Positions 2,886 through 46,172 of a stretch of 64,000 nucleotides of DNA are shown here, one piece after another. The notes under the pieces were generated by a model. That model had not been told where the DNA came from. It saw nothing but the letters and a program-made list of their open reading frames with translations, and ran no database searches. Each line of letters starts with the position of its first letter. Within the stretch, counting starts at the first letter, position 1. Position numbers and translations under genes: made by a program. The DNA comes from an uncultured Acidobacteriota bacterium (GTDB lineage Bacteria > Acidobacteriota > Vicinamibacteria > Vicinamibacterales > 2-12-FULL-66-21): positions 361,061 through 425,060 of the forward strand of contig CAVVOD010000004.1 of assembly GCA_963749835.1 (NCBI GenBank), given 5' to 3'.

Positions 2886-2930
2886 CTAATAGCTGACAGC
2901 TGAGAGCTGAGAGCTGAGAGCTGAGAGCTG
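2874..2930. repeat. tandem heptamer array (NANAGCT)x8, mostly GAGAGCT
   Basis: gagagct gacagct aatagct gacagct gagagct gagagct gagagct gagagct, read directly. The same family in opposite orientation is at 8503-8573. Confidence 0.9.
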
Positions 2931-3025
2931 CCCCCCGTGCGTGTTACGCTCGTCGAACCCTGTCACCCGGACCGTGTGCCGTCGGCCTCGCGAACCGGCG
3001 CGCAACGGCTGTCCGTGCTGCGAAC

Positions 3026-5774: not shown

Positions 5775-5989
5775 GATCGACTCGGGATCCGGGACTCGGG
5801 ACTGGGGATTCGTGGCCGAGCTGGACTGCCAGAGATCGAGCCCGAATCCCGAGTCCGGTCCTATCGAGTCCCGAATCCCGACTGACCGAGTCCCGAATCC
5901 CGACTGACCGAATCCCGAATCCCGACCGACCGAATCCCAAATCCCCACTGACCGATCCCGAGTCCCGAGTCCCGGATCCCGAGTCGATC
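5775..5989. repeat. composite hairpin element: 29-bp perfect terminal inverted repeats (5775-5803 / 5961-5989) enclosing 4 tandem 22-bp units (5866-5953) built from CCCGARY heptamers
   Basis: gatcgactcgggatccgggactcgggact is the exact reverse complement of agtcccgagtcccggatcccgagtcgatc. The units are gagtcccgaatcccgactgacc x2, gaatcccgaatcccgaccgacc and gaatcccaaatccccactgacc. Confidence 0.9.
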
Positions 5990-8476: not shown

Positions 8477-8502
8477 GCGCGAATTATACGGGGCGGGCAG
8501 TT

Positions 8503-8612
8503 CTCAGCTATTCAGCTCTCAGCTCTCAGCTCTCAGCTCTCAGCTATCAGATCTCAGCTCTCGGCTAACAGGCTTTTCCGGCGAGCCCCGGGCCCCGAAT
8601 CCCGAGTCCCGA
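8503..8612. repeat. tandem heptamer array (CTCAGCT)n, about 10 units (8503-8573), followed by a short CCCGARY run (8590-8612)
   Basis: tcagcta ttcagct ctcagct x4 atcagat ctcagct ctcggct, then ccccgaatcccgagtcccgaac. Read directly. Confidence 0.85.
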
Positions 8613-12233: not shown

Positions 12234-15200
12234 CTATCCCCCCGGCGCCACTGGGACAGGCGCCGGGTCGTACGCGAGGTTCGGCGCGAGCCAGCGCTCG
12301 ATGGTCTCGATGTCGGCATCCTTCCGCATGGCGTAGGACTCCACCTGATCCCGTGCAATCCGGCCGACGTTGAAGTACTTCGCCTCCGGATGTGAGAAGT
12401 ACAGCCCGCTCACCGAGGCCGCCGGCAGCATCGCAAAGCTCTCCGTCAGCGTGAGCCCCTGCCGGCCCGCGTCCAGCGCGTCGAACAGCTTGCCCTTCTC
12501 GGTGTGGTCCGGACACGCGGGATAGCCGTATGCCGGACGGATGCCACGATACTTCTCGGCGACGAGATCGTCGTTCGACAACTGTTCCTGGTCGCCGTAT
12601 CCCCAGTCCTTCCGCGCCTGCGCGTGGAGGTACTCCGCGAACGCCTCGGCGAGTCGGTCGGCCAGCGCCTTCACCATGATCGCGTTGTAGTCGTCGTGAT
12701 CCCGCTCGAAGCTCCGCGCCAGTTCGTCAGCGCCGAGTCCGGCCGTCACCGCGAACATCCCGATGTAGTCCGGCACGCCGGTGTCCAGCGGCGCGATGAA
12801 ATCCGCAAGCGATCGGTTCGGACGCTTGTCGGCAATCACTTCCTGCTGGCGCAGCATCGGCAGCCGCGTCAGCTCGACGCGACGCGTGTCGTCCGCGAAC
12901 ACGACGATGTCGTCGCCGACGCTGTTGGCGGGCCAGAAGCCATAGACACCACGGGCCGACAGCAGCTTCTCCTTGATGATCCGCTTGAGGAGTTCCTGCG
13001 CGTTCGCATACAGCTCGCGTGCGGCCGATCCGTAGGTCGGATGTTCCAGGATCGCGGGGAAGCGCCCCTTGAGCTCCCAGGCCGAGAAGAAGAACGTCCA
13101 GTCGATATACCTGGCAATATCCTCGAGCGCCACGTCATCCAGGTATCGGCGCCCGACGAACCACGGTGACGCAATGACGTGACCGTCCCAGTCGATCGTG
13201 AGGCGGTTCGCGCGCGCCTGCTCATACGTCAGCAGCGGTTTCTGCCGCCGCGTGGCGTAGCTCTCGCGAATCTCCGCCTGCGCCACACGGTTCACCCGGT
13301 CGAACTCCTCCCGCCTCTCGCCGATGACGCTTGACACCACGTCCACCGCCCGCGACGCGTCGAGCACGTGGATCACCGGGCCGGAGTATTCGTGCGCAAT
13401 CTTGACGGCCGTGTGCTGCCGGCTCGTCGTCGCTCCCCCAATCAGGAGCGGCGTCGTGAAGCCGCGGCGCTCCATCTCCCGCGCGACGAACGCCATCTCG
13501 TCGAGCGACGGCGTGATGAGCCCGCTCAGCCCGATGATGTCGGCCTTGTGTTCCACCGCCGCATCGAGGATCTTCGCCGCCGGGACCATCACCCCGAGGT
13601 CGATCACCTCGTAGTTGTTGCAGCCCAGCACGACCCCGACGATGTTCTTGCCGATATCGTGAACGTCTCCCTTCACCGTCGCCATCAGGACACGGCCCTG
13701 CGCCGACGCGGCGCCCGTGATGCGCTTACGCTCTTCCATGTACGGCAGCAGGTAGGCGACCGCCTTCTTCATCGCCCGCGCGCTCTTGACGACCTGCGGC
13801 AGGAACATCTTGCCCGCACCAAACAGATCGCCGACGACCTTCATCCCGTCCATCAGCGGGCCCTCGATGATGTGCAGCGGCTCTTCATACTTCTGCCGCG
13901 CCTCCTCGACGTCCACCTCGATGAAGTCCACGACGCCGTGCACGAGGGCGTGCGACAGCCTCGCCTCGACGGTGGCCTCGCGCCAGCCGAGATCGGCTTC
14001 CCGCTTCGTCCCGCTCCCCTTGACGCTGTCCGCGAACTGCACGAGCCGCTCCGTCGCGTCAGGACGACGGTTGAAGATGATGTCTTCGACGTGTTCCAGC
14101 AGGTCCTTCGGGATGTCTTCGTAGACGATCAGCTGTCCGGCGTTGACGATGCCCATGTCCATGCCGGCCTTGATGGCGTGATACAGGAACGCGGAATGGA
14201 TGGCCTCGCGGACGACGTCGTTGCCGCGGAACGAGAAGGACAGGTTGCTGACGCCGCCGCTGATCTTGGCCCCCGGACAGGTCGCCTTGATGATCTTCAG
14301 CGCCTCGATGTAGTTGACCGCATAGTTGTTGTGCTCCTCGAGCCCTGTCGCGATGGCGAGGATGTTCGGATCGAAAATGATGTCGGTCGGATCGAACCCC
14401 GCCTGCTGGATGAGGAGCGTGTAGGCGCGCTGGCAGATCTGCACCTTGCGCTCGACGGTGTCCGCCTGGCCTGTCTCGTCGAAGGCCATGACGACGACGC
14501 CGGCGCCGTACCGGCGGACCGTCCGCGCCTTGTGGAGGAAGTCCTCTTCCCCTTCCTTCAGGCTGATGGAGTTGACGACCCCCTTGCCCTGGACGCACTT
14601 GAGTCCGGCCTCGAGCACGGTCCACCGGGAGCTGTCGATCATCACCGGGACCCGCGCGATCTCCGGCTCCGTCGCGATGAAGTTCAGGAACGTCGTCATC
14701 GCCTGCTCGGAATCGAGCATGCCTTCGTCCATGTTGACGTCAATCATGTTGGCGCCGCCGCGCACCTGCTCGACCGCGACGCTGACGGCCTCGGTGTAGT
14801 TCCCGCTCTTGATCAGCCGCGCGAACTTCGCCGACCCCGTGACGTTGGTGCGCTCGCCAATCATCTGGAAGTTGCTCTCCGGACGGATCGTCAGCACTTC
14901 GAGCCCGGAGAACTGGGAATAGTGGACGGGATCGGGACTCGGGGCTCGAGACTCGGGATTCGGGGCTCGGGACTCGGGGCTCGGCTCGGATTCGGGACTC
15001 GGGATTCGCCCGCCCCCGCTCGCATCCACATCTGTGCGAGCTACGGCGAGGCCGCGCCGTAGCCGCGCCGCGGCGGAGGCGGGGGACTCGGGGCTCGCCG
15101 GATCGGGACTCGGCGACCCGGGCGCCGTAGCTTCCGCCTTCAGGCGGAAGGATGCTGCAGACACCCATGACGGCGACGGCAGCGGCCGCGGCGTCACGCG

Positions 15201-17300: not shown

Positions 17301-17373
17301 GGTCAGCTCTCAGGTCTCAGCTGTGAGCCATTGGTATCGGAGCTGAAAGCTGAGTGCTGAGAGCTGAGAGACC
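17301..17373. repeat. inverted pair of GAGAGCT-family heptamer runs forming an imperfect hairpin
   Basis: ggtcagctctcaggtctcagctgtgagcc .. ggagctgaaagctgagtgctgagagctgagagacc. It lies between the M13 peptidase stop and the SahR-like start. Confidence 0.75.
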
Positions 17374-19448: not shown

Positions 19449-22076
19449 CTACAACCCGGTCGGCAATGCGGCGGCGCGCCGCGCCCTGAGCCACTCGGTC
19501 AGCTTCGCGGGTTGCGTGGCGGCAAGCGAGGAGCACTCGTTGATCCGCTCGACCGCCTGCTGGAGTGTCCGCGTGGCATCCGGCACCTTGTGAAGGGTGA
19601 AGAACTGCTTCACGTTCACGGCTGTCCGCGCGTCGCAGAACGTGCCGAGCGCGGCAATCACCTGAGTATTGCCCCCGAACTGGCCGGTTTTCTTCTGCAC
19701 CTGCGCCCATCGTTCACGGAGGAGCGGCCAGGCGAGTTTCCGCGCGTCAGGGTTGCCCAGCAGATTCGCCAGGAAGACCTTGGCGTCCTGGCTGCGCACA
19801 TCCGGCCCGACGATGTAATCGATCGTCCTGCGCACCAGGGCGGGATCGGTGAAGCCGGCGAGCCCGTACAAATAGCGATAGTGCTCTTCGGGGTCCGTCG
19901 CGGCTTTGCTACGCTCGACATACTTGGCGTACAGCGCGGCGTCACCACGCCGGGCCGCCACTCTGACAGCGGCGTTCAGCAGGGTCGGCTCGACGGTGCC
20001 TGGTTTCGCAAGCTCCTCGAGGACCAGGCTGCGCGCCTTCGCGACGACGGCAGGATCGCCGGCGGCCTCGCCCAGTACCGAGACGAGCGACGCGCGAAGC
20101 GCGCGGGTCTCGTCGCTATCGGAGGCACCGGACGACCATCCGACCCGTTCGAGTGCCGGCCCCAGCAGCGAGCTGACCCACGCACTGTACGCCGGCCGCG
20201 AGCCGGGCGTGGTCAGGTTGTCGCCGATGGTTCCCAGCGAGGCCACCAGTGTGGCGACGACCGCCGCGTCCCGCTCCCCTTTGAATCCAGCGGCGAGGTC
20301 CATGAAGGAGCTGACATCATGCCGTCCCTGGAGCACAAGTGCCCACTCGTCGTCGAGGAGCGAGATCCGCTCGCCGGGCGTCAGTGACGTGATGCCTGCC
20401 GCAAGCTTCGGAAGCATCGCCGGCGGATTCACGACACGGTAATAGCCCCGCGCCCCTGCGTTGGCCATCACATATGCGGGGCACGACTCCAGCGGCACAT
20501 CCAGGGGCTCCTCGCCGACGACCTCGCATGCCGTCTTCCCGTCTGGCGTCTTTATGCAGACCGGAATGTCCCATGTGCGCGGCGGGGCGACGCGGCGGGG
20601 CCCCGAGGCGCCGGTCGGCGCCGTCTCCTGACTGACCGTCGCTGTGCCACGGCCGTCAGCGCACTTGACCGTCGCATCCACCATCGGCACGCCGGGCCGA
20701 TCCACGAAGCCGGCCATCACGCGATCGACGGGCTTCCCGGTGCTCGTCGCCAGCGTGCCCCAGAAGTCCTCTGCGGCGGCATTGCCGTACTTGAACCGTT
20801 CGATGTAGGCGTTGACGCCGGTCCTGAACGCCTCTTCGCCGACCCATGCCTCGATCATCCGGAGCACGGCTGCCCCTTTTCGTACGCGATCGCGTCGAAG
20901 AGCTCGCCGATCTCGTCGGGAGTCGATGCGCTGGTACGGATCGCGCGGGTCGTCTCGAGAGAGTCGAGCGCCATCGCTTTCTGGTTCGACTGAACCTCCT
21001 CGAGCTCCATGTTCCACTCGGGCTTCCATGCCTTGACCGGCTTGCTCGCCATCCACGTGGCGAACCCTTCGTTCAGCCAGATGTCGTCCCACCACCGCAT
21101 CGTCACGAGATCGCCGAACCACTGGTGGGCCATTTCGTGGGCGAGCACGCTGGCGATGTTCTTGCGGACCCTGACCGACGCGCCTTTCGGATCGGCGAGG
21201 AGGAGCGTCTCGCGGTAGAAGATCGCGGCGGTGTTCTCCATCGCTCCCGCGGCAAAGTCCGGGACGGCAACGATGTCGAGCTTCTTGAACGGATACTTCA
21301 CGGTGTAGTAGCGGTTGTAGTACCCGCAGGATCTCGGCGGCCGCCTCGAGCGCCAGGCCGGTCTGCCCCTTCTTGTCCGGTGTGGAGCAGATGCGAATCG
21401 GGATCCCGTCGGCGCTGCGTGACGAGCATTCGAAGTCCCCGACCGCCAGCGCCAGCAGGTACGTCGACATCTTCGGCGTGGTCTCGAATGTGACCGTGTG
21501 CTTCCCCGGCTTCGGGCTCGGCGTGTCGGACACGATCGCGCCGTTCGAGATCGCGTGGTCTCCCGTGTCGATCGTGGCGCTCAGCGCGAACGTCGCCTTG
21601 AACGCGGGCTCGTCGAACGACGGAAACATGCGTCGCGCGTCGGTCGCCTCGAGCTGCGTCACTGCGTAGCGGCGATTGTTGGCCTTGCTGAGATACAGCC
21701 CGCGCAACTGGTTGTTCAGGATGCCGGTGTATTTCACGGCGATCTCGGCGCGCCCCGCGGCAATGACCTGCGGCACCGTGAAGGTGGCCTGTTCGCGCTT
21801 CGGGTCCAGCGTGACGCGGGCGGTCTGCGTGCTGCCGCCGGCAGCGATGGTGACCGTGTCGAATGTGATCTCCGCAGCGTTCAGGGTGATCGTCCGCGAA
21901 GGCTTCTCGAGCGTCACGGTAATCCGCTCGGTGGCCGTAAAACTCGCCGCCGGGAGGTTCGGCTCGACGGCGATCTCGTAGTGCTCCGGGACGACGTTGC
22001 CAGGGAGCCGCTGGGCACGGGCGGGGGAGGCGAAGAGGATCAGCGCGGCACTGAGGACCAGAGGAAATTTACTCAT
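19449..22076 (-). pseudogene. pepN: M1 family aminopeptidase N, disrupted by two compensating 1-nt frameshifts (or sequencing errors) that scramble the catalytic core
   Basis: Begins MSKFPLVLSAALILFASPARAQ at ~22076 inside the 1401-aa track ORF. The catalytic segment ([22 protein letters not shown]) is only readable in another frame (track ORF 20855..21301). Frame switches are at ~21324-21326 (extra G: ctgcggGtactac) and ~20873-20876 (one G missing: gaaaagggg^cagcc, expected [10 protein letters not shown]). Confidence 0.85.
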
Positions 22077-22121
22077 GATGGCACCCGATGAAAGCTCCAA
22101 CTGACGGCCTATACTGGCCGG

Positions 22122-22742
22122 GTGAAAATGAAAGTGTACCCCAGCGCACGTCCTGTGGCCGCGCTCGTGCTGGCGCACGGCGCGGGCGCGGGGCAATCCA
22201 GCCCATTCATGGTTCGCGTCGCCACCGGACTGGCTGAGCGGGGACTCTCCACCGCGACCTTTGATTTCGGCTACATGAGCACGGGACGCAAGGTGCCTGA
22301 CCGCGCGCCCGTGCTCGAAGCCGCGTGGCGCGAGGCGATCGAGTCGGCCCGATCGGAGTTCAGGGGACTGGCGCTCTACATCGGCGGCAAATCCATGGGC
22401 GGACGCATCGCTTCCCACGTGGCCTCGCAGGGAGGAACCGGCCCGCTCGCCGGCCTGGTCTTCCTGGGTTATCCGCTGCATCCGCCGGGGCGTCCCGACC
22501 AGCGCCGCGACGCCCACCTGCCGGCCATCGCTGAACCGATGCTCTTCGTGCAGGGAAGCCGGGACGCCTTCGGCTCGGGGGATGAGATTCGTCAGCTGCT
22601 GCCGTCGCTGCAGCACGCGACGCTGGAGGAGATCCAGGGAGGCGACCACTCCTTCAAAGTCCCGGGCGGCGCCAGCCAGCAGGCGCCCGTCCTCACGGGC
22701 ATCATGGACGCGGTAGCCGCGTGGACACAGAGGACGGCCTGA
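22122..22742 (+). CDS. alpha/beta hydrolase (KANL3/Tex30-like predicted hydrolase family)
   Basis: 206 aa. ..LVLAHGAGAG.., nucleophile elbow ..GGKSMGGR.., ..FVQGSRDAFG.., ..GGDHSF. Confidence 0.8.
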   Translation: MKMKVYPSARPVAALVLAHGAGAGQSSPFMVRVATGLAERGLSTATFDFGYMSTGRKVPDRAPVLEAAWREAIESARSEFRGLALYIGGKSMGGRIASHVASQGGTGPLAGLVFLGYPLHPPGRPDQRRDAHLPAIAEPMLFVQGSRDAFGSGDEIRQLLPSLQHATLEEIQGGDHSFKVPGGASQQAPVLTGIMDAVAAWTQRTA

Positions 22743-22761
22743 CTTGCGCCTGCGCTCGATG

Positions 22762-22890
22762 CGGGAGCTACGGCGGGGCCAGGCCCCATTTCGGGATTCG
22801 GGACTCGGGACTCGGGGTTCGGAAATGCGGAAGCTGGAAGCCGGAAGCTGGAAGCCGGAAGCTGGAAGCTGGCAGCTGACAGCTGATGTC
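22762..22890. repeat. spacer holding three abutting heptamer families plus GGGAGCTACGGCGG and a GGGGCC-A-GGCCCC palindrome
   Basis: gggattc gggactc gggactc ggggttc, then cggaagc tggaagc x6, then tggcagc tgacagc tgatgtc. Read directly; all have a 7-nt period. Confidence 0.9.
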
Positions 22891-22898
22891 TGCCCCTG

Positions 22899-23555
22899 AT
22901 GTCTGAGTCTGACCTTCGCCTCATCGCTGCGACGACCCATGGCCGCGTCCTGGTGCGCGACGCGCGGGCGGCCGCCGCGCGGGGAGTCCTCGTGGGGTTC
23001 CATGGCTACATGGAACAGGCGGTCATCCAGATGGAGCGGCTGCAGGCGATTCCCGGAGCCGCGCGGTGGACGCTCGTGTCCATCCAGGCGCTCCACCGGT
23101 TCTACCGGGGGCGCAGCGAAGAGGTCGTGGCAAGCTGGATGACGAGCCAGGATCGCGAGGCCGCCATCGCCGACAACATCGAGTACGTCGATGCGGCGCT
23201 CGACACGGTCCCCCACGATGCGTCCACGAAGATCGTCTTTGCGGGTTTCTCGCAAGGCGTGGCCATGGCCTTCCGGGCCGCGGTCAGAGGACGTCGTCCC
23301 GCCGCGGGCGTCATTGCGGTTGGCGGCGACGTGCCGCCGGAACTGCTGCTGGATCAGGACGCGGCGTTCCCGTTCGTGCTGCTCGCACGGGGCGCGCGCG
23401 ACGAGTGGCTCACCGCACAGAAGTTCAGAGCGGACCTGAACGCTCTCGCGGAGCGCACGCCTGGACCGAGAGTTCGCGCCGTCGAATTCGAGGGCGGACA
23501 TGAATGGAACGACGCCGTGGCCGAGGCGGCGGGGGATTTTCTCGAGTCCGTCTAG
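22899..23555 (+). CDS. phospholipase/carboxylesterase-type alpha/beta hydrolase
   Basis: 218 aa. ..VLVGFHGY.., nucleophile elbow ..FAGFSQGVAMA.., C-terminal ..GGHEW. Confidence 0.8.
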   Translation: MSESDLRLIAATTHGRVLVRDARAAAARGVLVGFHGYMEQAVIQMERLQAIPGAARWTLVSIQALHRFYRGRSEEVVASWMTSQDREAAIADNIEYVDAALDTVPHDASTKIVFAGFSQGVAMAFRAAVRGRRPAAGVIAVGGDVPPELLLDQDAAFPFVLLARGARDEWLTAQKFRADLNALAERTPGPRVRAVEFEGGHEWNDAVAEAAGDFLESV

Positions 23556-23754
23556 TGTCCTGACCGCGTGGATCGTGCATAAGTCCCGGAGCGCGGCGCC
23601 CGGCTGGCTAGGCGCGACGACCGAGAATACTGGCCGTATTTGAGGGAGGAGCAACGCCGCCAGGCCGGGGCCCCCGCCGCGCGTGTTTTGCGCGGTGGGG
23701 TGGAGAAGGGATGCCCCGCCCGGGAATTATGTCGCGAACCACGCGGTCAGGACA

Positions 23755-24279
23755 CTAAGTCTCCGTCCTGGTCGCTGTGTTCGTGTTCGTCCCGGTGTCC
23801 GTCTTCGTTTCCGGCTTACTGCTCGGGGCTCCGGCCTTCCTCCTGTGCCGCACGCCGGCTTCTTCGACAGAGTGTGACTGCGTCAACGTGACATCGCGAG
23901 CCGCCATCGTCACGAGCTTGTGATAGTGCCGGCGAAGCAGGTTGAGCTCGTCCTCAGAAAGTGACTCCACTTCGATCAGGCGGTTGCTCGCGCCGTCCAG
24001 CGCGGCGACGATCTCGTTCAGCTTCAGGTGAATCGCGAGCGAGTCCTTGTTCTGCGAGCGCTGGATCAGGAACACCATCAGGAACGTCACGATGGTCGTG
24101 CCGGTGTTGATAATCAGCTGCCAGGTGTCCGAATATCCGAAGAGCGGTCCGGTGATCAGCCAGATGAGGATGGTGGCTGCTGCGATTGCGAACGCGGAGG
24201 TGCCGCCGGTCCAGTGCGTAACGCTCGTCGCGAGCCGCTCCAGCCCGCGGCCGAAAGAGTTGTGTGGTTTTCGCCCCAT
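23755..24279 (-). CDS. low-affinity iron permease family membrane protein
   Basis: I prefer the start at MGRKPHNSF (24279). ..HWTGGTSAFAIAAATILIWLITGPLFGYSDTWQLIINTGTTIVTFLMVFLIQRSQNKD..LHLKLNEI.. matches the family signature. Confidence 0.8.
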   Translation of the reverse strand: MGRKPHNSFGRGLERLATSVTHWTGGTSAFAIAAATILIWLITGPLFGYSDTWQLIINTGTTIVTFLMVFLIQRSQNKDSLAIHLKLNEIVAALDGASNRLIEVESLSEDELNLLRRHYHKLVTMAARDVTLTQSHSVEEAGVRHRRKAGAPSSKPETKTDTGTNTNTATRTET

Positions 24280-24392
24280 GACCCCGCCTCCTGGCTGAAA
24301 CTCTACCATCCGCGACTGAGGCATCCGCACCGGGCCGCACGTCCTCCGTCCACTCACCTTCGTGGGAAGCACGCTTCCGGTATAGTGATCGG

Positions 24393-26262
24393 ATGTCTTC
24401 TTCTGCGACCACTTCTTCGAACACCACTCCGGCTGAGCCGCCCGCCCGCAGCCGCCTGCGCGGAGAGATTCCCGAGCGATTCAAGTGGAACCTGGCCGAC
24501 ATCTTCCCGGATTGGCCGGCCTGGGAGGCAGGCTACAAGACGCTCGAAGGCATGATCGCGCACTACACGGCGCTGAAAGGCACGCTGGGGGGCGGCCCTG
24601 ACCGGCTGCTCGAGGCGTTCCGGCTCTCCGAGGAGATGGGACAACTCGCCTACCGGGTCTGGTACTACCCGTCGCTCCAGTACCGACGAAGACCAGCGCG
24701 ACAACCTCGTGAACGCAAAACGTCAGCAGGTCCAGATTCTGTTTGCTCGTATCGCGCAGGCGGAATCGTGGTTCAACCCGGAACTGCTCTCCATTCCGCT
24801 GGAAAGAGTCCGCGGCTGGATGGACGGCTCACCCGAGCTGACTGTCTACCGGTTCGTGATCGAGAACCTCTACCGACAGCAGGAACACGTGCTCGACGAG
24901 CACGGCGAGAAGCTGATGTCGCTGGCCAGCCGCCTGGCCTCCGCTCCGAACGACGCATACTGGGCGCTCTCCACGGCGGACGCCAGGTTCCCGAAGATCA
25001 CCCTGTCCACCGGCGAAGAGGTCACGGTTTCTTACGGACAGTATCGGGCGCTCCTCGCAACCCGGCGCGAGCAGTCGGATCGCAAGGCGGCGTTCGTGGC
25101 GCTGCACGAAACCTACAACGCGGCGCTCAACACCTACGCGACGCTGTACAACGGCGTCTGCCAGCGCGACTGGTTCCAGGCGCGCGCCCGCGGCTACGCC
25201 AGCACGCTCGATGCCGCCCTGCACGGCGACAACATTCCTCCGTCGGTCGTGGAAAACCTCATCTCCACGACCCGCGCCGGCGTCGAGCCCCTGCGCCGCT
25301 ATCATCGGCTGCGGCGCAAGGTTCTGGGAGTCGACTCGTACCAGGTGTACGACTTCTCGATTCCCCTCGTCACGTTCGACAAGAAATACCAGTACGACGA
25401 TGTGCTCGACTGGATCGTGGCCGCGGTGGAACCGCTGGGCGCCGAGTTCCAGGCGCGCATGCGCGAAGGTTTTCTCGGCCGCTGGATCGACGTCTACGAA
25501 AACGAGGGTAAACGCTCGGGCGCGTACTCGGCCCCGGTGTACGGCACGCATCCGTACATGCTGCTGAACTACAACGACACGCTCGACGACGTCTTTACGC
25601 TGGCGCACGAGATGGGGCACTCGATGCACACCATCCTGTCCCACGAGTCGCAGCCGTTCGTGTATTCGAACTACACGATCTTCGTCGCGGAGGTCCCTTC
25701 GACGCTCACGGAGGCGCTCCTGCTCGAGTACATGCTGAAGCACTCGACGGACCCGGTCGAGCGGATCGTCCTGCTGCAGCACGCCATCGACAACATCACC
25801 GGCACGTTCTTCACGCAGGTCATGTTCGCCGACTACGAGCTCCGCGCCCATCGTCTTGCGGAACAGGATCACCCGATCACGTCAGAGATCCTGACGGAGA
25901 CGTACAGCGCCCTGCTGAAGGACTACTACGGCGATGCGCTCGACATGAATCCCTTCACCGGCATCACGTGGGCGCGGATTCCGCACTTCTTCAACTCGCC
26001 GTACTACGTCTATCAGTACGCGACGTGCTTCGCGTCGGCCGCGCGCCTGTCGCGGGAAATCATGCACGGAAGCGGCGCCAGCGACTCGCGCGATCGCTAC
26101 CTGTCGCTTCTCAAGTCCGGCGGCAACGACTATCCGATGGAACAGCTGAAAAAGGCGGGGGTCGATCTCGCGCAGCCGGATACCGTCATGGCGGTCATCG
26201 AGCAGCTCGACGATCTGGTCACGCGGCTCGAACGGGAACTGGCGGCGCTCGAGCAGGAGTGA
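24393..26262 (+). pseudogene. pepF: oligoendopeptidase F (M3B), interrupted by a single 1-nt insertion (or sequencing error) at ~24684
   Basis: Two track ORFs (24393..25511 and 24709..26262) join as ..VWYYPSLQY|DEDQRDNLVNAKRQQVQILF.. if the extra C in cagtacCgacgaa is removed. The downstream part carries the zinc motif HEMGHSMH. Confidence 0.88.
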
Positions 26263-26269
26263 AGGGGGG

Positions 26270-27460
26270 TCACGCCCCCGAGAGGTCTTCCTGCTTCACA
26301 GGCGCGACGGCGGGGACCTTCGGGTCCGGGTGATACCGCAGCGCAAGAACCGCGGCGCCGACGAGCGCGATCGCTGCGGACCCATACGCGCTGCCTTCAC
26401 CGAAACGTTGCAGCGATCCGTTCCCCCACACCGGACCCATCGTCCTCCCGAGGCTTTCGAGCGCGCCGGCCGCCCCCTGCACCCGGCCCTGTTCGTGTGG
26501 ACCGGCGGCCTTGCTCACAAGGGCGCTGAGGGTCGCGTTGCACAAACCGATGCCGATGGCGCCCGGCACGAGCATGAAGACGAACACGGGGAGCGAATGC
26601 GTGAGGGCGCTGCCGCCCCAGCCGACGGCTGCGAACAGCAGCCCCGTGCTCAGCGTGCGGCGCTCTCCCAGCACGCGAACGATCGGACCGACCATTCCCC
26701 CCTGCACGACGACGCCGAGGACGCCGAAGGCGCTCAACAGATAGCCGATGTGGGCGGCGTCGAACCCGAATCGCCTGGCGCCGAAGAGCGCGAACGTCGT
26801 CTGGTACACCGCGAACGCCGTCCAGTACACGAAGTCGATGGTGAACAGCAGTCGAAGGTGCGGACGCCCCCAGAGCTCCCCGAGAGCCTGCCACGGTGAA
26901 CGGCCGGCCTCCGTCCGGTGCACAGTTTCGGGCAGCCAGAACCACGCCATCGCGACGGCGACGACCGTAATCGCCGCGGCGGCCCAGATCGGCGCCGTGT
27001 AGCTGATATGTGAAAACGCGGCTCCCAGTGCGGGGCCGACGATGAACCCGAGACCGAATGCCGCACCAAGCAGGCCGAACGCCTTCGCCCGGTTCTCCTC
27101 GGTCGAGACGTCCGCGATGTAGGCCCGCGCGGTCGTGATGTTGCCTCCGGAGAGTCCGTCCACAATCCGCGCCGCAAACAGCATCGCCAGGCTGTTCGCC
27201 ATCGCCATCATCACGAAGCTGACGACCGTTCCGAGCAGACTGAAGATGAGCACCGGACGCCGGCCCCAGCGATCTGAGAGATCGCCGAGAAGCGGCGACG
27301 CGATCAGCTGGCTCAGCGAAAACGAGGCGAACAGCAACCCGATGACGAGCGGAGACGCGCCGAACGTCTGGGCGTAGAACGGCAGCAGCGGAATGATGAT
27401 GCCGAAGCCGACGAGATTGACGAACGTCGTCAGAAAGATGATGAAGAGGGGGCGGGACAA
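26270..27460 (-). CDS. MFS transporter (TetA/DHA1-like)
   Basis: 396 aa with about 12 predicted hydrophobic helices. The motif ..GDLSDRWGRRPVL.. is MFS motif A. Confidence 0.88.
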   Translation of the reverse strand: MSRPLFIIFLTTFVNLVGFGIIIPLLPFYAQTFGASPLVIGLLFASFSLSQLIASPLLGDLSDRWGRRPVLIFSLLGTVVSFVMMAMANSLAMLFAARIVDGLSGGNITTARAYIADVSTEENRAKAFGLLGAAFGLGFIVGPALGAAFSHISYTAPIWAAAAITVVAVAMAWFWLPETVHRTEAGRSPWQALGELWGRPHLRLLFTIDFVYWTAFAVYQTTFALFGARRFGFDAAHIGYLLSAFGVLGVVVQGGMVGPIVRVLGERRTLSTGLLFAAVGWGGSALTHSLPVFVFMLVPGAIGIGLCNATLSALVSKAAGPHEQGRVQGAAGALESLGRTMGPVWGNGSLQRFGEGSAYGSAAIALVGAAVLALRYHPDPKVPAVAPVKQEDLSGA

Positions 27461-27517
27461 TGGAAATGCTGATTGCTGCTGATTGTGATCACCCGGGAGC
27501 TCGCGCGGCGGGCGGCC

Positions 27518-28249
27518 CTACATGCGCGGCTCCTTCTGGACGGCAACGCCCTTGATTATGACAGGCTCCACCGGCACATCGTCCATGCCTGCCGTCGACC
27601 GCGTCGGAACGGCGGCAATCCGGTCCACGACGTCCATGCCTGAGAGGACACGCCCGAAGACCGCGTACCCGAACTCGTCTGGAGCATAGCCTGTATGATC
27701 CAGCCGCCGATTATCGACGACGTTGATGTAGAACTGCGCGGTGGCGCTTCTGAGCGCCGCCAGTCGCGCCATCCCGACTGTCCCCCGGGCGTTCCGCAGC
27801 CCGTTGGTCGCTTCGTTCTGAATCGGCGGCCGCGTCGGTTTCTCGGCGAGCGACTCCGTGAATCCCCCTCCCTGAATCATGAACCCCGCCTTGACGCGAT
27901 GGAAGACCGTGTCCGCGTAGAACCCCTCGGTCGCGTATTGCAGGAAGTTCTCGACCGACACCGGTGCAAGCCCCTTGAACAGCTCGATTGTGATGTCGCC
28001 GAAGGAGGTGGAGACGGTGACCACGGGATTGCCGGGGGCGGGCGTCGGCGCGGGTGCCTGCAGCGGGGGGGCCTGAACGGCCTGATTGGGGTCTCGCGGG
28101 TCCGGCCGGTTCGGCGCCGAGGCCTGTCGAACGTCAGCCTCGACAACCGCTCCGCGTAAGACATTTACGGAACCCGGGAGCATTGGACTCCAACCGGCTG
28201 CGACAGAAAGAATGGCGATGAGCAGCCATAATCGATGGGAGGTCCGCAT
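27518..28249 (-). CDS. secreted peptidylprolyl isomerase (cyclophilin type)
   Basis: 243 aa with a signal peptide. ..FHRVKAGFMIQGGGF.., ..GTVGMAR.., ..YAVFGRVLSGMDVVDRI. Confidence 0.9.
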   Translation of the reverse strand: MRTSHRLWLLIAILSVAAGWSPMLPGSVNVLRGAVVEADVRQASAPNRPDPRDPNQAVQAPPLQAPAPTPAPGNPVVTVSTSFGDITIELFKGLAPVSVENFLQYATEGFYADTVFHRVKAGFMIQGGGFTESLAEKPTRPPIQNEATNGLRNARGTVGMARLAALRSATAQFYINVVDNRRLDHTGYAPDEFGYAVFGRVLSGMDVVDRIAAVPTRSTAGMDDVPVEPVIIKGVAVQKEPRM

Positions 28250-28399
28250 ACAACTCCATGGCGCGGGGATTCAACCCGATGGATCCGGCATGTTAGGCTG
28301 TCGCTGCGCCGCACGTCAATCCGGGCCTGAATTCAATCCCGGTCACGGCACGCAAATCGCATCATCACATGCGCATTCTCGCGCAGGGGGAGAACCGGC

Positions 28400-28744
28400 A
28401 TGGTCACAGACCTCCAGACCGAACAACGCGAGCTGGCCGATTTCATCAGGGCCGGGTCCTCGCGCGGGCCGCAGTGCTTCGGCAGTTACTTCGACGAGCA
28501 GGGGGGCTCGTGCGCCCTCGGGGCGGTTTACGAAGGCGTCTACCACCTGCCGCGCCAGCATGGAAAGTTGATCCCGGACCATCTCGAACGGCTGTTCCGT
28601 TGCCTGGATGAGATGACCAAGAAGTGCCCCGTGGGCTGCCCCAAGCGATTGCCCCTGGCCTCGATGATCGTGCATCTCAACGACGATCACCGGATGTCCC
28701 GCGAGGAAATCGCCGAGTGGCTCACCCAGGAATCCAGCGGTTAA
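28400..28744 (+). CDS. hypothetical small cysteine-containing protein (114 aa)
   Basis: Has protein-like composition, unlike the antisense ORFs. GGGGGAG lies about 8 nt upstream of the ATG. Features ..GGSCALGAVYEG.. and ..IVHLNDDHRMSREEIAEWL... No family recognised. Confidence 0.6.
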   Translation: MVTDLQTEQRELADFIRAGSSRGPQCFGSYFDEQGGSCALGAVYEGVYHLPRQHGKLIPDHLERLFRCLDEMTKKCPVGCPKRLPLASMIVHLNDDHRMSREEIAEWLTQESSG

Positions 28745-28847
28745 CGAAGTCGGAATCGTCGGTGGCCGGCAGGACCGTCTCGACGTCCTCGATGGACGCT
28801 CGGGAAACGGGAACGGCCAGATGCGGTTCGCGACTGCAGGGCTCGCG

Positions 28848-31836
28848 ATGTCTTTTCTAGACCGATTCAAGCCACAGCCGCGATGGAAGCATGCGGATGC
28901 CGCGATCCGGGCCGCGTCGATCCCTGAGGTGCCGGACGACGAGGAACACCGGGACGTCATTGCCGATCTGGCGCGTACCGACGAGGACGTGCGTGTCCGT
29001 CGCGCAGCCGTCGCGTATCTGTCGGACGCCGGAGTGCTGGCGACCCTCGCCCGCTCGGAAGTGGATGCCGATCTGCGCCGGGAGATCACCGACCGCCTCG
29101 TCGCGATTGCGACAGGGCCGTCGGACACGGACGCCTCCGCCGCACAGGCGCTCGAAGGACTCGACGATCCCAGGCAATTCGCGACGATTGCCAAATCCTC
29201 TCCCCACGACACGATCCGTGCGGCCGCGCTCGGCCGCGTGCACGAGCAGAAGATGCTCGGCAGCGTCGCACGTCACGCCGGCGACCCCCAAACGGCTCTC
29301 GACGCGGTAGCCCGCGTCAGCGAGGGGCCGGAACTGCTGAACATCGCCCTCAAGACCGATCACCGGGACGCCGGGCTTGCCGCGCTCGAGAAGTGCCTCG
29401 GGGACAGCGAAATGGACGAGGCCGCGGCTCGCGGCACGCTCGAAACCGTGCTGGCGAAGGCGAAGAACAAGGCGGTCTCGAAGCGCGCCCGCGCGATGTT
29501 GCAGGCGATGCAGGACGCGGAAATGGCCCGGCGAATGGCGATGGAACAATGGCAGCAGCGCGTCGCGTCGATCGTGGCACGCGTGGAGGCGATTGCGGCG
29601 AACCCGGCCCTGCCGAATGCGGCACGCGAGATCGGGGATGCCGAGGCTGAATGGAGCCAGGTGACGGCAAGCGCGACGTTCGAGCTCGATCCCGACACCG
29701 CCGGGCGCTTCGGCGCACTGGTCGAGACCGCGAGAACGGGGATCGCGGCGCATGAACGCGCCGAGGCCGAGCAGCGCGCCGCCGCGGAGCACGCCGCCGC
29801 CCTGCGCGCGGTGCGCGTGTCGCTCTGCGAACGGCTCGAGCATGCCGCGGCGGAGGCCGCGCTCGATGAGCTCGCCGCGGCGCGCGCCGAGTGGGAAGGC
29901 CTGCCGGAGCCGTCGGAGGACGCTGCGGATCAGCAGCTGCACTCGCGCTTCCTCGAGGCGTCGCGGCTGGCCGTCGAGCGCCATGACAATCATCTGAACG
30001 GCGCGCGCACCAATGCGCGGCTGGAGGAGTTGTCGCTCGAAGCGGAGCGGCTCTCCGCCGAAGATCAGGTACTCGGACGAAGCCTGGACCGCCGTGCAGA
30101 GTGAATGGGCGTCGCTGCAATCGAAGTGCGACGTCGTCGATCCGTCGACTGCCGAGCGCTACGCGTCGGCCGACGCGCGGGTCCGGCTCCGGGCCGAAGA
30201 AGGCCGGGCCGCAGCGGAGCGCACGCTCCGCCAGCAGGTCCAGCGCATCGAGCAGCTGATCGAGCGCGCCACGGCGCGGGCGGCGGCAGAAGATGTGACG
30301 CTCCGGGAGGCGGAACGCATCGCGCGCGAGCTCCGCGCGGCGATTGACGCGCCGCACCTCCCGGGCCGCGAACAGCAGGCCCTTATCGAGCGCCTCAAGG
30401 CCGCGCAGGGCGTGATTGCCCCGAAGGTCCACGAGCTTCGGGAGCTGGACGAGTGGAAGCGGTTCGGGAACGCAGCCGTCCAGGAAGAGCTCATCGCCAG
30501 GACCGAGGCGCTTCGCGCGAAGTACGGGTTCGACACGCCAGAGGGAGTGAAGCCGGAGGAGCTCGACAACGTGGCTCGCGAGCTCCATGAGGTCCAGGAG
30601 CGATGGAAGCAGGCGGCTGAAGCGCCGCGCGCCCAGGCGCAGGCCCTGTGGCATCGCTACCGTCAGGCCGCGGATCCGATCCAGGTCAAGGTCCGGGAGT
30701 TCTTTGCGCAGCGCGTGGAAGAGCGCAAGGGCAATCTCGCGCGGAAGATCGCGTTGATCGAGCGCGCCGAAGCGCTTGCGCCGTCGACCGACTGGATCAA
30801 GACCGCAGACGAGTTGAAAAAGCTCCAGGCCGAGTGGCAGGAAGTCGGCCCGGTGCCCAGGCAGGACACCCGCGCCACGTGGAAACGATTCCGTGAGGCG
30901 TGCGACGCCTTCTTCACGCGGCGGAACGAGGATCTCGCCCTGCGGAAGGCCACATGGGCGGCCAACCAGGCGCGCAAGGAGGCCCTCTGCGCGCGCGCCG
31001 AGGAGCTCGCAGCGTCCACCGAGTGGGACCGCGCCGCCATGGAGATTCGGCGCCTTCAGGCCGAATGGAAGAATGTCGGACCCGTGCGGCGCACGAAGTC
31101 CGAAGCGTTGTGGCAGCGGTTCCGCCTGGCATGCGACACGTTCTTCGACCGCTACAAGCGCCGGGATGAGATCGAGCTCGAGGTGCGGCAGGCCGATCGC
31201 GAAGCGCTCGTCACCGAGCTCGAGGCGCTGGTGTCCGCAGGCCGGAGCGACCAGTCGGAGCTGAGCATCCCCGAGGTCATGGGCGACATCGCGCCGCCGG
31301 CGCCGTCTCCCTTCGACAATGCGGCCCTCCTGGAGCGCGTTCGCTCGCTCCGCAACCGCTGGAACCAGTCGGCGGCCGCGGTACGCCAGGGGGCGGATCC
31401 ATTGAGCGCGCGCTTCATGGGAGCCCTCGAACGGTTGATTGCCGCCTATCCCGAGGCCTTCCGCGGCACCGAGCTCGACACGGATGCGAACCGCCGGAAG
31501 ATGGAGAAGCTCTGCGAGAAGGTCGAAGGCTTCCTCAAGGATGCCGCGGCCGCGCCCACGTCATCGCAGTCGCTCGCGGCGATGCTGCGCGAGGCGCTCG
31601 CGTCCAACACGATCGGCGGGCGGGCGGGAGAAGAGACCAAGTGGCGGGCGATGGCGGAGGAAGTACGCAACGCGCAGGCGGCGTGGACGCGCCTTGGGCC
31701 GGCGCCGGACGAAACCGGGCGTCAGCTGGGCGAGCGGTTCCACCGGGCCTGCAGCCGCTTCTTCGAGCAGTTCCGTCGCCATGTTCCGCAGAACGCCCCG
31801 CAGGTGCAGCGCGGAAGACCCGTCGGCGCGCGCTGA
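28848..31836 (+). pseudogene. DUF349 repeat protein, interrupted by a single 1-nt insertion (or sequencing error) at ~30069
   Basis: The track ORFs 28821..30104 and 30013..31836 join as ..LSLEAERLSAEDQ|YSDEAWTAVQSEWASLQ.. if one G in gatcagGtactcg is removed. Multiple DUF349 repeats are present (..W..VG.V.R....LW.RFR.ACD.FF.R..). The preferred start is MSFLDRFKPQ at 28848. Confidence 0.85.
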
Positions 31837-34599: not shown

Positions 34600-35076
34600 G
34601 GTGACGAGGTCATCATAATCGGGCTCGTCTCGGATACACACGGCCTTGTGCGTCCGGGCATCTTCGAGGCGCTGAACGGCGTCTCGCGGATCCTGCACGC
34701 AGGAGACGTGGGCGGCCGGTCAGTCCTGGACGAGCTGCAGGTGATTGCGCCCGTCCTCGCGGTCTACGGCAACGTCGATCCGCCGGGTCCGCCCCTCGAC
34801 GCGCAGCACATCGTCCGGGCCGGCGGTCTCACCGTTCATGTCTCGCACGGCCATGAGCTGGGGAGTCCGACCCCCGAGAAGCTGCTCGAGGCCTACTCGG
34901 CTGACGTCCTCGTCTACGGGCATACGCACAAGGCGCTCGTGCACCGCGCAGAGGGCCGGCTCGTGGTCAATCCAGGCGCCGCCGGGCCGCGACGGTTCAA
35001 CCTCATGCCGTCCATCGCAAGGTTGACGATTGCTGGTGGACGGGCGGATGTCGAGATCGTCGAGCTCCGCACGTAG
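34579..35076 (+). CDS. metallophosphoesterase (YfcE / MJ0936 family)
   Basis: C-terminal part of track ORF 33376..35076. ..IIIGLVSDTHG.., ..HAGDVG.., ..VYGNVD.., ..VSHGHE.., ..VYGHTH.. give the full phosphoesterase motif set. The start (ATG 34579) is uncertain and overlaps the divergent gene by about 20 nt. Confidence 0.8.
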   Translation: MNVAQAHGDEVIIIGLVSDTHGLVRPGIFEALNGVSRILHAGDVGGRSVLDELQVIAPVLAVYGNVDPPGPPLDAQHIVRAGGLTVHVSHGHELGSPTPEKLLEAYSADVLVYGHTHKALVHRAEGRLVVNPGAAGPRRFNLMPSIARLTIAGGRADVEIVELRT

Positions 35077-35204
35077 CGAGGCTCGAACTGCGAGCGAGTA
35101 ATGGTCTCGCTTTCGAACGACGTTCAGGACTCGCCTCCAAAAGAATCGTCAACAGGAGACCACGAGGTCAGGAGGAGTTGTGTGAAAAGGGTGGAGGAAA
35201 AGAT

Positions 35205-35555
35205 CCACCACGGAGTCACTGAGAGCACGGAGACGCACGGAGAGGCCCGGATGGCTTCGGGCGTTGTCTCAGAAATCAGCGTTCAGGCTTTGTTGCCGGA
35301 GTCCCGTTGGGAGGGTCGCGCGAAGCGCGGCCCGACCACCTCGATCTGGGACGGGTGGTCGGCCGCGCTTCGCGCGGTAGACCGGTAGGGGATCACTCAC
35401 ACACCAACTCGATAAGAGGGCATGCGCGAGCTTGTGTATGAGTGATCCCCTGCCGGTTCTGCGCCGGCCAAGGCCGGCGCCCGACCACCGACCAACAGCG
35501 GCAAGCCAGCCCGTTCCCTCCGTGCGCTCCGTGTCCCCGTGGTGATCTTCGTGAT
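35205..35555. mobile_element. MITE-like multi-hairpin element, copy D2 (central hairpin 35388-35450)
   Basis: Left end is ccaccacggagtcactgagagcacggagacgcacggagagg and right end ccctccgtgcgctccgtgtccccgtggtg, so the termini are inverted. Internal pairs: gcgaagcgcggcccgaccacc / gggtggtcggccgcgcttcgc and gcgccggccaaggccggcgc. Track ORF 35101..35388 is not protein-like. Confidence 0.65.
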
Positions 35556-35585
35556 CGCTCGTCTTTGCCGGTTTTGAGACGCCCC

Positions 35586-36740
35586 CTACTTTCCCCGCTT
35601 TCCGAAGCGTCGATCGGCCAGGAGAAAATACGGGAGTGCGAGGGCGGAAAGCGTTGCGGCGGCGCCGAACGCGCTTCGAAAACCGTAGTGCTGAATCATC
35701 CAGCCGATGCTCGTCGAGCCAGTGCCGACACCGGTATCGAACGCGGCGAGAATCGCCCCAAATGCGGCGCCCCGCCGGGCGGCGGTGACTTCACTCATCA
35801 CGTAGCCGACATAGACTGGGTATGCCGTACCGAAGCCGATTCCGAAAAACACCGCTGACGCAATCAGCAGCGGGCGCGTGCCGCCGATCGCGAGGCAACC
35901 CAGACCGACGGTGATGAGCACAAGGCACGGCAGGAACACCCGCCGGTATCCAAGTCGATCCCCCAGACGTCCGGCCATCGGCCGCGTGAGCAGCACGACA
36001 ATCGCCAGCGTCGTCAGGTAGATGGCCTGTGGCCTGACGTGATTGGCCTCCGCGTACATGGCCGTAAAGCTCGTGATGCCGCCGTACCCGAACGAATAGA
36101 GAAACAGCGTCCCCGAGATGATGAGGACGCGCCATTCGAGCACACTCTCCCGCGGGCCGGACGCGGGCCTCGGCGCGGGAGGGGTCGCGTGAAGCTGCGA
36201 CGCGATGATCGCCATCGTGATGTTCAGCGCCGCGGATACTCCGCAGAGCCACCACCAGCCGTGCCGGTAAATCCAGAACCCCAACGACGGTGCGACCGCC
36301 AGCGCGGCGACAGTTGACAGGCCCCAGTAGCCGATACCCTCGGCGCGCCGGCGCTCGGGGAGCATGTTCGTCATGTACGCCGCGGACGCCGAGAGCAGCC
36401 CGGACCAGAAGATGCCGTGGACGATGACGAGCGCGAACATCCATCGATAGTCCGTCAGCACTCCGTACAGAATCGAAAACACCGTAATCGCGATGCTGGA
36501 CGTGAGGAGCACTCGCCGCTGACCGACGCGGTCGGCGATGGCCCCCGTGAGCGGCGCGGACAACGCCGAGGAGTACGTCAGGAATCCGAGGAACAGACCC
36601 GACGCGAACGTGGATCCGCCGAGATCGCGGATGTGAAAAGGGGCGGTCGGCAGCAGCTGGAACAGCGAAAGAAACACCGTGAAGCTGAACCCGCACATCA
36701 CGAAGAAACGGGGTGTGAAGAGGCGATCGGGCGCGGACAT
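35586..36740 (-). CDS. MFS transporter
   Basis: 384 aa, about 12 hydrophobic helices. ..GAIADRVGQRRVLL.. and ..GRLGDRLGYRRVFL.. are MFS motif A in both halves. Confidence 0.88.
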   Translation of the reverse strand: MSAPDRLFTPRFFVMCGFSFTVFLSLFQLLPTAPFHIRDLGGSTFASGLFLGFLTYSSALSAPLTGAIADRVGQRRVLLTSSIAITVFSILYGVLTDYRWMFALVIVHGIFWSGLLSASAAYMTNMLPERRRAEGIGYWGLSTVAALAVAPSLGFWIYRHGWWWLCGVSAALNITMAIIASQLHATPPAPRPASGPRESVLEWRVLIISGTLFLYSFGYGGITSFTAMYAEANHVRPQAIYLTTLAIVVLLTRPMAGRLGDRLGYRRVFLPCLVLITVGLGCLAIGGTRPLLIASAVFFGIGFGTAYPVYVGYVMSEVTAARRGAAFGAILAAFDTGVGTGSTSIGWMIQHYGFRSAFGAAATLSALALPYFLLADRRFGKRGK

Positions 36741-44030: not shown

Positions 44031-44080
44031 CTTCCGCCTAAAGGCGGAAGCTACGGAGTCCCGATCCCCGATCCCCGATC
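44031..44080. terminator. hairpin module CTTCCGCC-TAAA-GGCGGAAG-CTACGG followed by CCCGATC heptamers, filling the 59-nt spacer between convergent ldcA and the M49 peptidase gene; candidate bidirectional terminator
   Basis: cttccgcctaaaggcggaagctacggagtcccgatccccgatccccgatc, read directly. It has an 8-bp GC-rich stem and a 4-nt loop. The terminator function is inferred only from its position. Confidence 0.5.
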
Positions 44081-46098: not shown

Positions 46099-46172
46099 TT
46101 CCTTCCGCCTGACCAGCCTGCGCCAAACCCCGAACCCCGAGTCCCGAATCCCGATCCCCCGAGTCCCGAATC
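46099..46172. repeat. half hairpin module (CCTTCCGCCTGA..) plus a CCCGARY heptamer run with six C-tracts
   Basis: ccttccgcctgaccagcctgcgccaaaccccgaaccccgagtcccgaatcccgatcccccgagtcccgaatc. It abuts the beta-CASP gene stop. Confidence 0.8.

Follow-up and report, generated by a model that had tools for sequence, protein, structure and literature searches.

Four frameshifts beside GTAC sites in an uncultured acidobacterium are most likely consensus errors of a long-read-only assembly

Single-base frame breaks beside a short palindrome, as found in an uncultured Vicinamibacterales acidobacterium, raise the question of whether they are mutations of the organism or errors of its assembly. In the stretch of DNA that we analysed (64 kb, hereafter the window), the original prediction had placed four frameshifts at or next to GTAC. 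Three approaches agreed on exactly four breaks, two in pepN and one each in pepF and a DUF349 gene, all of them no more than 2 bases from a GTAC. A hidden Markov model of codon-position GC, run over all 64 kb, found just four same-strand frame switches that coincide with no gene boundary, at 20868/9, 21321/2, 24683/4 and 30061/2. Searching with the ORFs of relatives (tblastn) placed the breaks at 20873-20879 (−1), 21323 (+1), 24684 (+1) and 30069 (+1). Lastly, the same four were the only frame-changing 1-nt indels in a base-level alignment with a 96%-identical short-read contig (L081/L087), which spans 16.0-59.3 kb of the window minus a 3.3-kb window-specific insert. This alignment also holds a compensating pair of 1-nt gaps at 39309/39316, lying 7 nt apart in a divergent patch, with zero net effect on the frame. 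Several other candidates were rejected: a fifth junction at 31038-31043 vanished with short-read queries only, its source being frameshifts within the long-read query ORFs; the overlapping same-strand ORFs at 16.2, 33.7, 39.4, 51.4, 52.5, 54.6 and 55.5 kb are ordinary gene boundaries; and a DUF1684 remnant (2619-2885) is a truncation beside a repeat array rather than a 1-nt frameshift.

The gene pepN (M1 aminopeptidase N; 19449-22076, minus strand) carries two of the breaks. Its +1 event is an extra C at 21323, where a GTAC occupies 21320-21323 (plus strand, GTACC→GTACCC; sense strand, CGGTAC→CGGGTAC); the tblastn HSPs stop at 21324 and restart at 21322, and the position is a gap against L081. 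The −1 event lies at 20877-20880, where the plus strand reads TTTT versus TTTTT in the same-species short-read contig, followed by C and then by GTAC at 20882-20885 (GTAC-G-AAAA(A)-GGGG on the pepN sense strand). Here too a gap opens against L081, the HSPs overlap over 20873-20879, and both L081 and L023 have A5G4; the two relatives with the A/G-run context of this site read GTACGAAAAAGGGG. Judged from these runs, the event would most parsimoniously be a contraction from T5 to T4, with a single base between the run and GTAC, and it may alternatively be read as G5→G4. The original prediction of a missing G, 5-6 nt from the motif, is thus probably to be replaced by the loss of one A/T from an A5/T5 run. 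In pepF (M3 oligoendopeptidase F; 24393-26262, plus strand), an extra C at 24684, immediately 3' of the GTAC at 24680-24683 (plus strand, GTAC→GTACC), splits the gene at ...SLQY|DEDQRDN into two ORFs; in 42 short-read relatives the HSPs stop at 24683 and restart at 24685, and L081 shows a gap. The gene for the DUF349-repeat protein (28848-31836, plus strand) has an extra G at 30069, immediately 5' of TAC (CAGTAC→CAGGTAC; plus strand, GTAC→GGTAC), with HSPs stopping at 30068 and restarting at 30070 and again a gap against L081. The claim that three of the indels are one and the same event, GTAC→GTACC or equivalently GGTAC, therefore holds, with positions fixed to the base by L081. Two of the four strings quoted (cggGGTACtac and cagGGTACtcg) are absent from the window, which has CGGGTACTAC and CAGGTACTCG instead, each of them shorter by one G.

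Four single-base edits regained full-length ORFs of 875 codons for pepN, 622 for pepF and 995 for the DUF349 gene. The repaired pepN aligns end to end with the 875-aa gene of L081 (Peptidase_M1_N/M1/ERAP1_C), and its catalytic core, GAMEN plus HEMAH-X18-E (20876-21322), lies between both indels, intact but out of frame as assembled. In close relatives with 91-92% identity, pepF is intact at 623 aa. The dN/dS values of the three repaired genes against L081 (0.126, 0.057 and 0.113, respectively) compare with 0.04-0.28 for 13 intact neighbours. This normal purifying selection supports an assembly artefact, and the three genes are almost certainly intact in the organism.

The contig used for these comparisons, MEGAHIT contig k141_6887655, represents the same species (96% nucleotide identity over about 40 kb) and was assembled from short reads; its pepN (875 aa), pepF (622 aa) and DUF349 gene (995 aa) are all whole, without the four indels. 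A frameshift census with ORFs from short-read loci as queries found 0 junctions in 66 of 66 short-read loci and four in the window. In contrast, 13 of 14 loci from Microflora Danica Nanopore-only MAGs had 1-16 junctions per 21 kb, and a second long-read set (L082-L086, five error-rich Flye contigs) had 3-23 each. Junctions were of the +1 type in 68 of 83 cases at the long-read loci and in 60 of 73 in the second set, with which the three insertions and one deletion of the window agree. Among the relatives, frameshifts thus occur only in Nanopore-only assemblies, which further supports the artefact reading. The window's proteins are encoded on an 814,121-bp contig (NCBI and ENA), a long-read scale for soil, and its platform was probably Nanopore, as in the Microflora Danica MAGs, its nearest long-read relatives. 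MFD-LR is Nanopore only: FLO-PRO114M flow cells were combined with super-accurate Guppy base-calling, Flye assembly and a single Medaka 1.8.0 round; its authors themselves checked their catalogue for Nanopore-associated errors (PMC12313526).

How strong is the link to GTAC? Contrary to the original prediction, GTAC is no rare word here: the window has 155 sites (1 per 413 bp) versus 75.5 expected from dinucleotide shuffles, with enrichment in coding DNA as NNG-TAC. The co-location argument is independent of this false premise. Positions within 1 nt of a GTAC make up 1.45% of the window, so the probability of at least three of four indels falling there is 1.2e-5, or 3e-4 after look-elsewhere correction over 136 canonical 4-mers, in keeping with the earlier claim that chance was unlikely. 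When insertions are confined to G/C runs, 72 of 8504 of which abut GTA/TAC, three of three gives 6e-7. Moreover, the three insertions are identical events that share an A on their other flank (P = 0.008). The association between indels and GTAC in the window is therefore non-random, and the remaining GTAC sites, about 150 in all, are free of such errors, as had also been noted. Outside the window, the pre-specified GGTAC came out as the most enriched 5-mer at junctions, a modest excess with 6 observed at 12 other Nanopore loci versus 0.98 expected (P = 5e-4), and two of the three junctions of the low-error loci L008 and L012 were +1 events at GGTAC.

These statistics have limits. Most frameshifts of the related Nanopore loci lie away from GTAC, and GGTAC enrichment in the second set (L082-L086) was in the same direction but not significant (2 versus 0.66 expected, P = 0.14). 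An unbiased k-mer scan of junctions at the other Nanopore loci found nothing past correction except the pre-specified GGTAC; GATC showed a mild excess there (15 observed versus 8 expected), and GANTC-like contexts were noticed by eye. The error excess per GTAC site was about 2.5% in the window versus about 0.6% at the other Nanopore loci, a difference with a Fisher P of 0.002-0.004 for the aligned region only and marginal over the whole window. Substitution errors at GTAC were not in excess against L081, with 43 of the 50 sites conserved both ways; gain and loss were symmetric at 7 each way, and two of the seven window-only sites are gap artefacts. A systematic mis-calling of GTAC in L082, suggested by two garbled orthologous sites in pepF (GTCA and GTCCA), was dropped, as 13 GTAC occur in 6.7 kb of this locus. 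In addition, a stretch of 9.2 kb out of the 64 kb holds all four events (P≈0.009), a clustering for which a pure motif model does not account; this suggests an extra local factor, e.g., a coverage dip or strain mixture.

Overall, the four indels very probably arose as consensus errors when long reads alone were assembled, rather than as mutations; the assembly was most likely made from Nanopore R10.4.1 reads with Flye and one Medaka round. In such a process, the base-caller or polisher would double the final C of GTAC in three of the four events, giving 5'-A·GTAC(+C), and in the fourth a 5-base homopolymer lying a single base away from GTAC would have shrunk. Random errors would be scarce in this contig, leaving a residue of sequence-context-specific error, which would explain the position of all four frameshifts at GTAC. 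Nanopore assembly errors are known to cluster inside methylated motifs or at most ±5 bp away, with only some copies of a motif affected (PMC12392509). The window's errors share with motif- or methylation-linked R10.4.1 errors (PMC12392509, PMC11610573, PMC11610603) a distance of at most a few bases from a short palindromic motif, a minority of motif copies hit, probable survival through Medaka polishing, and a largely coding location with broken genes. However, the published errors are chiefly substitutions at GATC, GANTC, CCWGG and type I motifs, whereas the recurrent error of the window is a +1 duplication of the terminal C of GTAC, the methylation of which is only hypothetical here. Compared with Nanopore homopolymer indels (PMC9262707, PMC11649196), the T5→T4 event at 20877-20880 is of the classic type, and two intergenic differences from L081, G5→G6 at 26269 and G4→G5 at 28390, fit this class as well. 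The three GTAC events, however, lengthen runs of only 1-2 bases, unlike the usual failure at long homopolymers.

Methylation of GTAC is a plausible cause of the base-calling bias. We consider it about equally likely that a GTAC-specific modification disturbs the signal and that a modification-independent k-mer bias is at work, which would belong to that generation of base-caller and polisher. Candidate modifications would be GTA-m4C, GTA-m5C or GT-m6A-C, all known specificities, so that GTAC is an established target of each of the three methylation types of bacteria and archaea: M.MjaV and M.MhuII make GTA-m4C and M.PabI makes GT-m6A-C, and GTAC m5C enzymes are predicted in Nitrososphaera (PMC11033074). 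The m4C/m5C target base of these enzymes is the base doubled in this window, which serves as a lead only and not as a claim of membership. No such gene, nor any DNA methyltransferase domain, was found among 40 window ORFs scanned against Pfam, which says little for 64 kb of a multi-Mb genome. Methyltransferase-like matches among these ORFs were limited to MetH and a small-molecule SAM methyltransferase fused to ArsR. GTAC avoidance as a sign of restriction-modification was not seen in the window (Markov ratio 0.87), the sole strongly avoided palindrome being CTAG. The main text of the Nanomotif preprint mentions neither GTAC nor Acidobacteriota.

Could the same breaks be real? The original prediction had offered a mutational hotspot as the alternative. 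On this reading, recent +1/−1 mutations linked to GTAC, e.g., where the target of a restriction enzyme or glycosylase is damaged or repaired, would have left pepN, pepF and the DUF349 gene as fresh pseudogenes. The non-random co-location fits this idea, error-prone repair is on hand in the window in the form of DinB (2918-4132) and a LigD primase-polymerase (54634-55572), and a 4% divergence is too small for very recent inactivation to lift dN/dS. Nevertheless, dN/dS is normal for the affected genes, a hotspot would have to spare all 66 short-read relatives, the same species included, while like +1 indels are rampant specifically in Nanopore-only assemblies, and in pepN it would require two independent hits, 446 nt apart, with the frame restored by chance. 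Known GTAC enzymes cleave at GT^AC or G^TAC (RsaI and Csp6I), and the insertion falls outside these cut points and preserves the site. We therefore regard a hotspot as very unlikely, and its specific form, in which GTAC lesions made by a PabI-like glycosylase or restriction enzyme would gain one base upon repair by DinB or LigD, as highly improbable. If true, genes would be inactivated again and again at a motif of 4 bp.

Ordinary random long-read errors, with the GTAC adjacency an after-the-fact coincidence, are another candidate, in favour of which speak the commonness of GTAC and its enrichment in coding DNA, the mainly GTAC-distant frameshifts of related Nanopore loci and the generic 5-mer homopolymer contraction of the fourth event. 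The corrected probability, the identity of the three insertions including their opposite flank and the separate GGTAC enrichment at other loci weigh against it, making coincidence very unlikely. Finally, G-GTAC/TAC sites might be suspected of programmed +1 ribosomal frameshifting or of transcriptional slippage, since at two of the three sites the extra G comes immediately before a sense-strand TAC (Tyr) codon. However, every short-read orthologue has a single unbroken ORF, almost identical flanks in the same-species short-read contig enclose no extra base, the third site is oriented opposite to its gene, and pepN further requires a −1 event. Such recoding seems extremely improbable and, judged by the alignment with L081, is effectively refuted. 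The artefact part of the original prediction is strongly supported by the absence of the indels from same-species short reads, the restriction of frameshifts among relatives to Nanopore-only assemblies and the purifying selection, and its methylation part is plausible.

The value of the GTAC-frameshift finding lies in quality control, and its biological interest is low. In this clade, public soil MAGs built from Nanopore reads alone are rich in +1 frameshifts, with some bins reaching 16 per 21 kb. These break genes apart and swell the tally of "novel" or hypothetical proteins held in the large databases, and out-of-frame pepF tails indeed group together in protein clustering. Where contigs are better covered, the errors that remain seem to depend on sequence context (GTAC→GTACC) and could be removed by motif-aware polishing or a simple rule-based check. 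If the bias is methylation-driven, error footprints could hint at the methylation motifs of uncultured lineages, with assemblies alone sufficing. As for this acidobacterium, annotation of pepN, pepF and the DUF349 gene as intact is warranted, and the breaks carry no biological significance.

The frameshifts lie in a region that encodes, in order, an M13 peptidase, the M1 aminopeptidase PepN (minus strand), two α/β-hydrolases, a low-affinity iron permease, the M3 oligoendopeptidase F PepF, an MFS transporter, a cyclophilin, a small ORF and a long DUF349-repeat protein. The gene order of the window (G+C, 65%) is common to dozens of Vicinamibacterales (Acidobacteriota) MAGs, whose loci were fetched with the pepF C-terminal ORF. 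The frame breaks were placed by three independent lines of analysis, namely a codon-position G+C Viterbi model, tblastn, and queries with short-read-derived ORFs only. Across the 64 kb, the Viterbi model gave same-strand frame switches without a gene boundary only at 20868/9, 21321/2, 24683/4 and 30061/2. When relatives' ORFs were used in tblastn, the query coordinates were contiguous and the subject skipped a single base at each of 21323, 24684 and 30069, with a subject overlap at 20873–20879. All four junctions persisted with short-read-derived queries only; a spurious fifth junction disappeared under the same limit. The frameshifts are real features of the assembled sequence.

A same-species short-read reference, the ENA contig ERZ27310924:k141_6887655 (a MEGAHIT-style name), was reached by an exact-sequence protein cluster match and shows 96% identity to the window at 16.0–59.3 kb. 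Its pepN (875 aa), pepF (622 aa) and DUF349 (995 aa) genes are all intact. The base-level gaps were TTTT in the window vs TTTTT (then C-GTAC) in the reference at 20877, GTACCC vs GTACC at 21323, GTACC vs GTAC at 24684, and GGTAC vs GTAC at 30069. These gaps show that three events are identical, each adding a second copy of the last base of GTAC, a C (read as G on the opposite strand), as the original prediction had held, although two of the strings it quoted were one G too long and are absent from the window. The fourth event, previously read as a G lost 5–6 nt from the motif, is most parsimoniously an A/T lost from a five-base run one base from GTAC; GTACGAAAAAGGGG occurs at this site in both the same-species contig (L081) and a relative's locus (L023), and the lost G is less likely. 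The remaining 1-nt indels relative to the reference are non-coding or, at 39309/39316, form a pair separated by 7 nt whose effects cancel, and none in this alignment is near a GTAC. Judging from the aligned sequences, the intergenic G runs at 26269 (G6 in the window, G5 in the short-read contig) and 28390 (G5 and G4) probably result from additional over-calling of homopolymers, which disrupts no gene.

The choice between artefact and mutation is settled in kind by a frameshift census of the relatives. No supported junction was found across 66 short-read loci (MEGAHIT, SPAdes or curated scaffolds), whereas 13 of 14 Microflora Danica long-read MAG loci had 1–16 junctions per ~21 kb; the window had four in the same census. 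Insertions (+1) accounted for 68 of 83 junctions in the long-read loci and 60 of 73 in another five Flye contigs from ENA (named "contig_N"). The Microflora Danica MAGs are Nanopore-only (FLO-PRO114M, Guppy SUP, Flye, one Medaka round), and their authors explicitly checked the catalogue for Nanopore-associated errors (PMC12313526). The window's proteins are carried by one 814-kb contig (NCBI, ENA), which is of long-read scale for soil.

Deleting three bases and adding one regained full-length ORFs whose codons align one to one with those of the reference genes. Their dN/dS values (0.126 for pepN, 0.057 for pepF and 0.113 for DUF349) are all inside the range of 13 intact neighbours (0.04–0.28), and the stretch of 149 codons that the two pepN indels enclose perfectly encodes GAMEN and HEMAH-X18-E in the "wrong" frame. 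When the N-terminal pepF ORF, with the 275 aa of its out-of-frame tail, was searched against the protein database, intact 623-aa relatives at 91–92% identity were returned, while the tail matched only other frameshifted pepF genes. All but one of these come from long ENA assemblies (5/5 examined were Flye-named contigs), and the break positions differ in all but one. In seven public Nanopore-only loci (L050, L044, L004 and L038 from Microflora Danica; L083, L084 and L086 from ENA Flye contigs), 12–23 frameshifts per ~21 kb were seen, overwhelmingly +1 insertions. Gene fragments from these assemblies have been deposited as individual proteins, and out-of-frame translations of them match one another in protein searches.

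GTAC had been called rare, which is wrong: the window contains 155 copies (about one per 413 bp) vs 75.5 expected from dinucleotide-preserving shuffles, with a trinucleotide-Markov ratio of 0.87. Its abundance reflects the frequency of NNG-TAC (Tyr) in coding DNA rich in G+C. Positions within 1 nt of a GTAC make up 1.45% of the window, and therefore the probability of at least three of four events falling there is 1.2e-5. After correction for the look-elsewhere effect, in which random quadruples were simulated and each was scored by its lowest binomial P among the 136 canonical 4-mers, P was 3e-4. On the assumption that insertions extend G/C runs only, 72 of the 8504 runs abut GTA/TAC, and P for three of three is 6e-7. 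In all three the opposite flank is A, 5'-A·GTAC(+C) (P = 0.008, post hoc). Pure coincidence is very unlikely, given the P value after correction and the recurrence of one identical event; the link between frameshifts and GTAC looks real, and the co-location first reported is statistically sound, with three factual slips. The four events also fall within 9.2 kb (P≈0.009), a clustering that the motif model alone does not explain.

A real GTAC-linked mutational hotspot, the alternative first offered, is very unlikely, as it needs three genes to be hit in 9 kb, with two compensating hits within pepN, and has left no trace in any short-read relative. The insertion position is also not known to fit any GTAC cleavage pattern. 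Programmed frameshifting is excluded because the orthologues are uninterrupted and the same-species short-read contig, near-identical in its flanks, does not have the extra base. The indels are an assembly artefact, as originally interpreted, and there is no biological feature at these sites.

Other features of the window were also recorded. Many period-7 tandem-repeat arrays with differing units (TGAGAGC, CGAATCC, CAGCTCT, CGGGACT and others) occupy intergenic spacers, and resemble cyanobacterial STRR heptamers. The arrays are at 2873–2930, 5779–5982, 8498–8566, 14927–15008, 17340–17370, 22790–22885, 44060–44080, 46126–46159, 48612–48644, 49330–49353 and 60624–60752; that at 14927–15008 (12 copies) is inside the ORF of metH, where it lies in the linker that joins the homocysteine-binding domain to the pterin-binding domain. 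Relative to the same-species short-read contig, the heptamer arrays of the window vary in steps of a whole unit. A DUF1684 gene remnant (2619–2885, minus strand) adjoins the 2873–2930 array and the divergently oriented dinB; a single-base frameshift was rejected here, the gene being truncated (Pfam positions 62–138 of 139 matched). The same-species short-read contig lacks a 3.3-kb segment (50562–53852) that encodes a histidine kinase, a LytTR response regulator and a protein with a 3-keto-disaccharide-hydrolase domain; the aminotransferase and short-chain dehydrogenase genes that flank this segment in the window stand side by side in the contig. The non-coding stretch 34991–35586, very indel-rich relative to that contig, holds 10-nt repeats (CACGGAGAG) and G+C-rich palindromes.

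A question raised by these findings is why the errors favour GTAC. In an unbiased k-mer scan of 12 other Nanopore loci, GGTAC was the top 5-mer near junctions (6 observed vs 0.98 expected; P = 5e-4, pre-specified test), GTAC lay within 5 nt of 10 junctions vs 3.2 expected (P = 0.0014), and in L008 and L012, the cleanest pair of loci, 2 of 3 junctions were +1 at GGTAC. A second set, of five very error-rich contigs, showed the same direction for GGTAC, which was non-significant (2 vs 0.66 expected, P = 0.14). Per GTAC site, the excess in the window (~4/155) is only marginally above the pooled ~0.6% elsewhere, with Fisher P = 0.002–0.004 only when it is restricted to 50 aligned GTAC sites. No DNA methyltransferase was found among the 40 window ORFs scanned, GTAC avoidance was not seen in the window, and the comparison with the reference gave no substitution excess at GTAC. 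GTAC-specific m4C, m5C and m6A methyltransferases are known (PMC11033074), and Nanopore assembly errors are documented inside methylated motifs or up to 5 bp from them, at some occurrences only (PMC12392509; see also PMC11610573 and PMC11610603). Methylation of GTAC gains no more than plausibility from this evidence, and it is therefore rated about as likely a cause as a modification-independent k-mer bias. Overall, the finding can be used for quality control of Nanopore-only MAGs, and it is a reasonable hypothesis that this organism may have an active GTAC methyltransferase.
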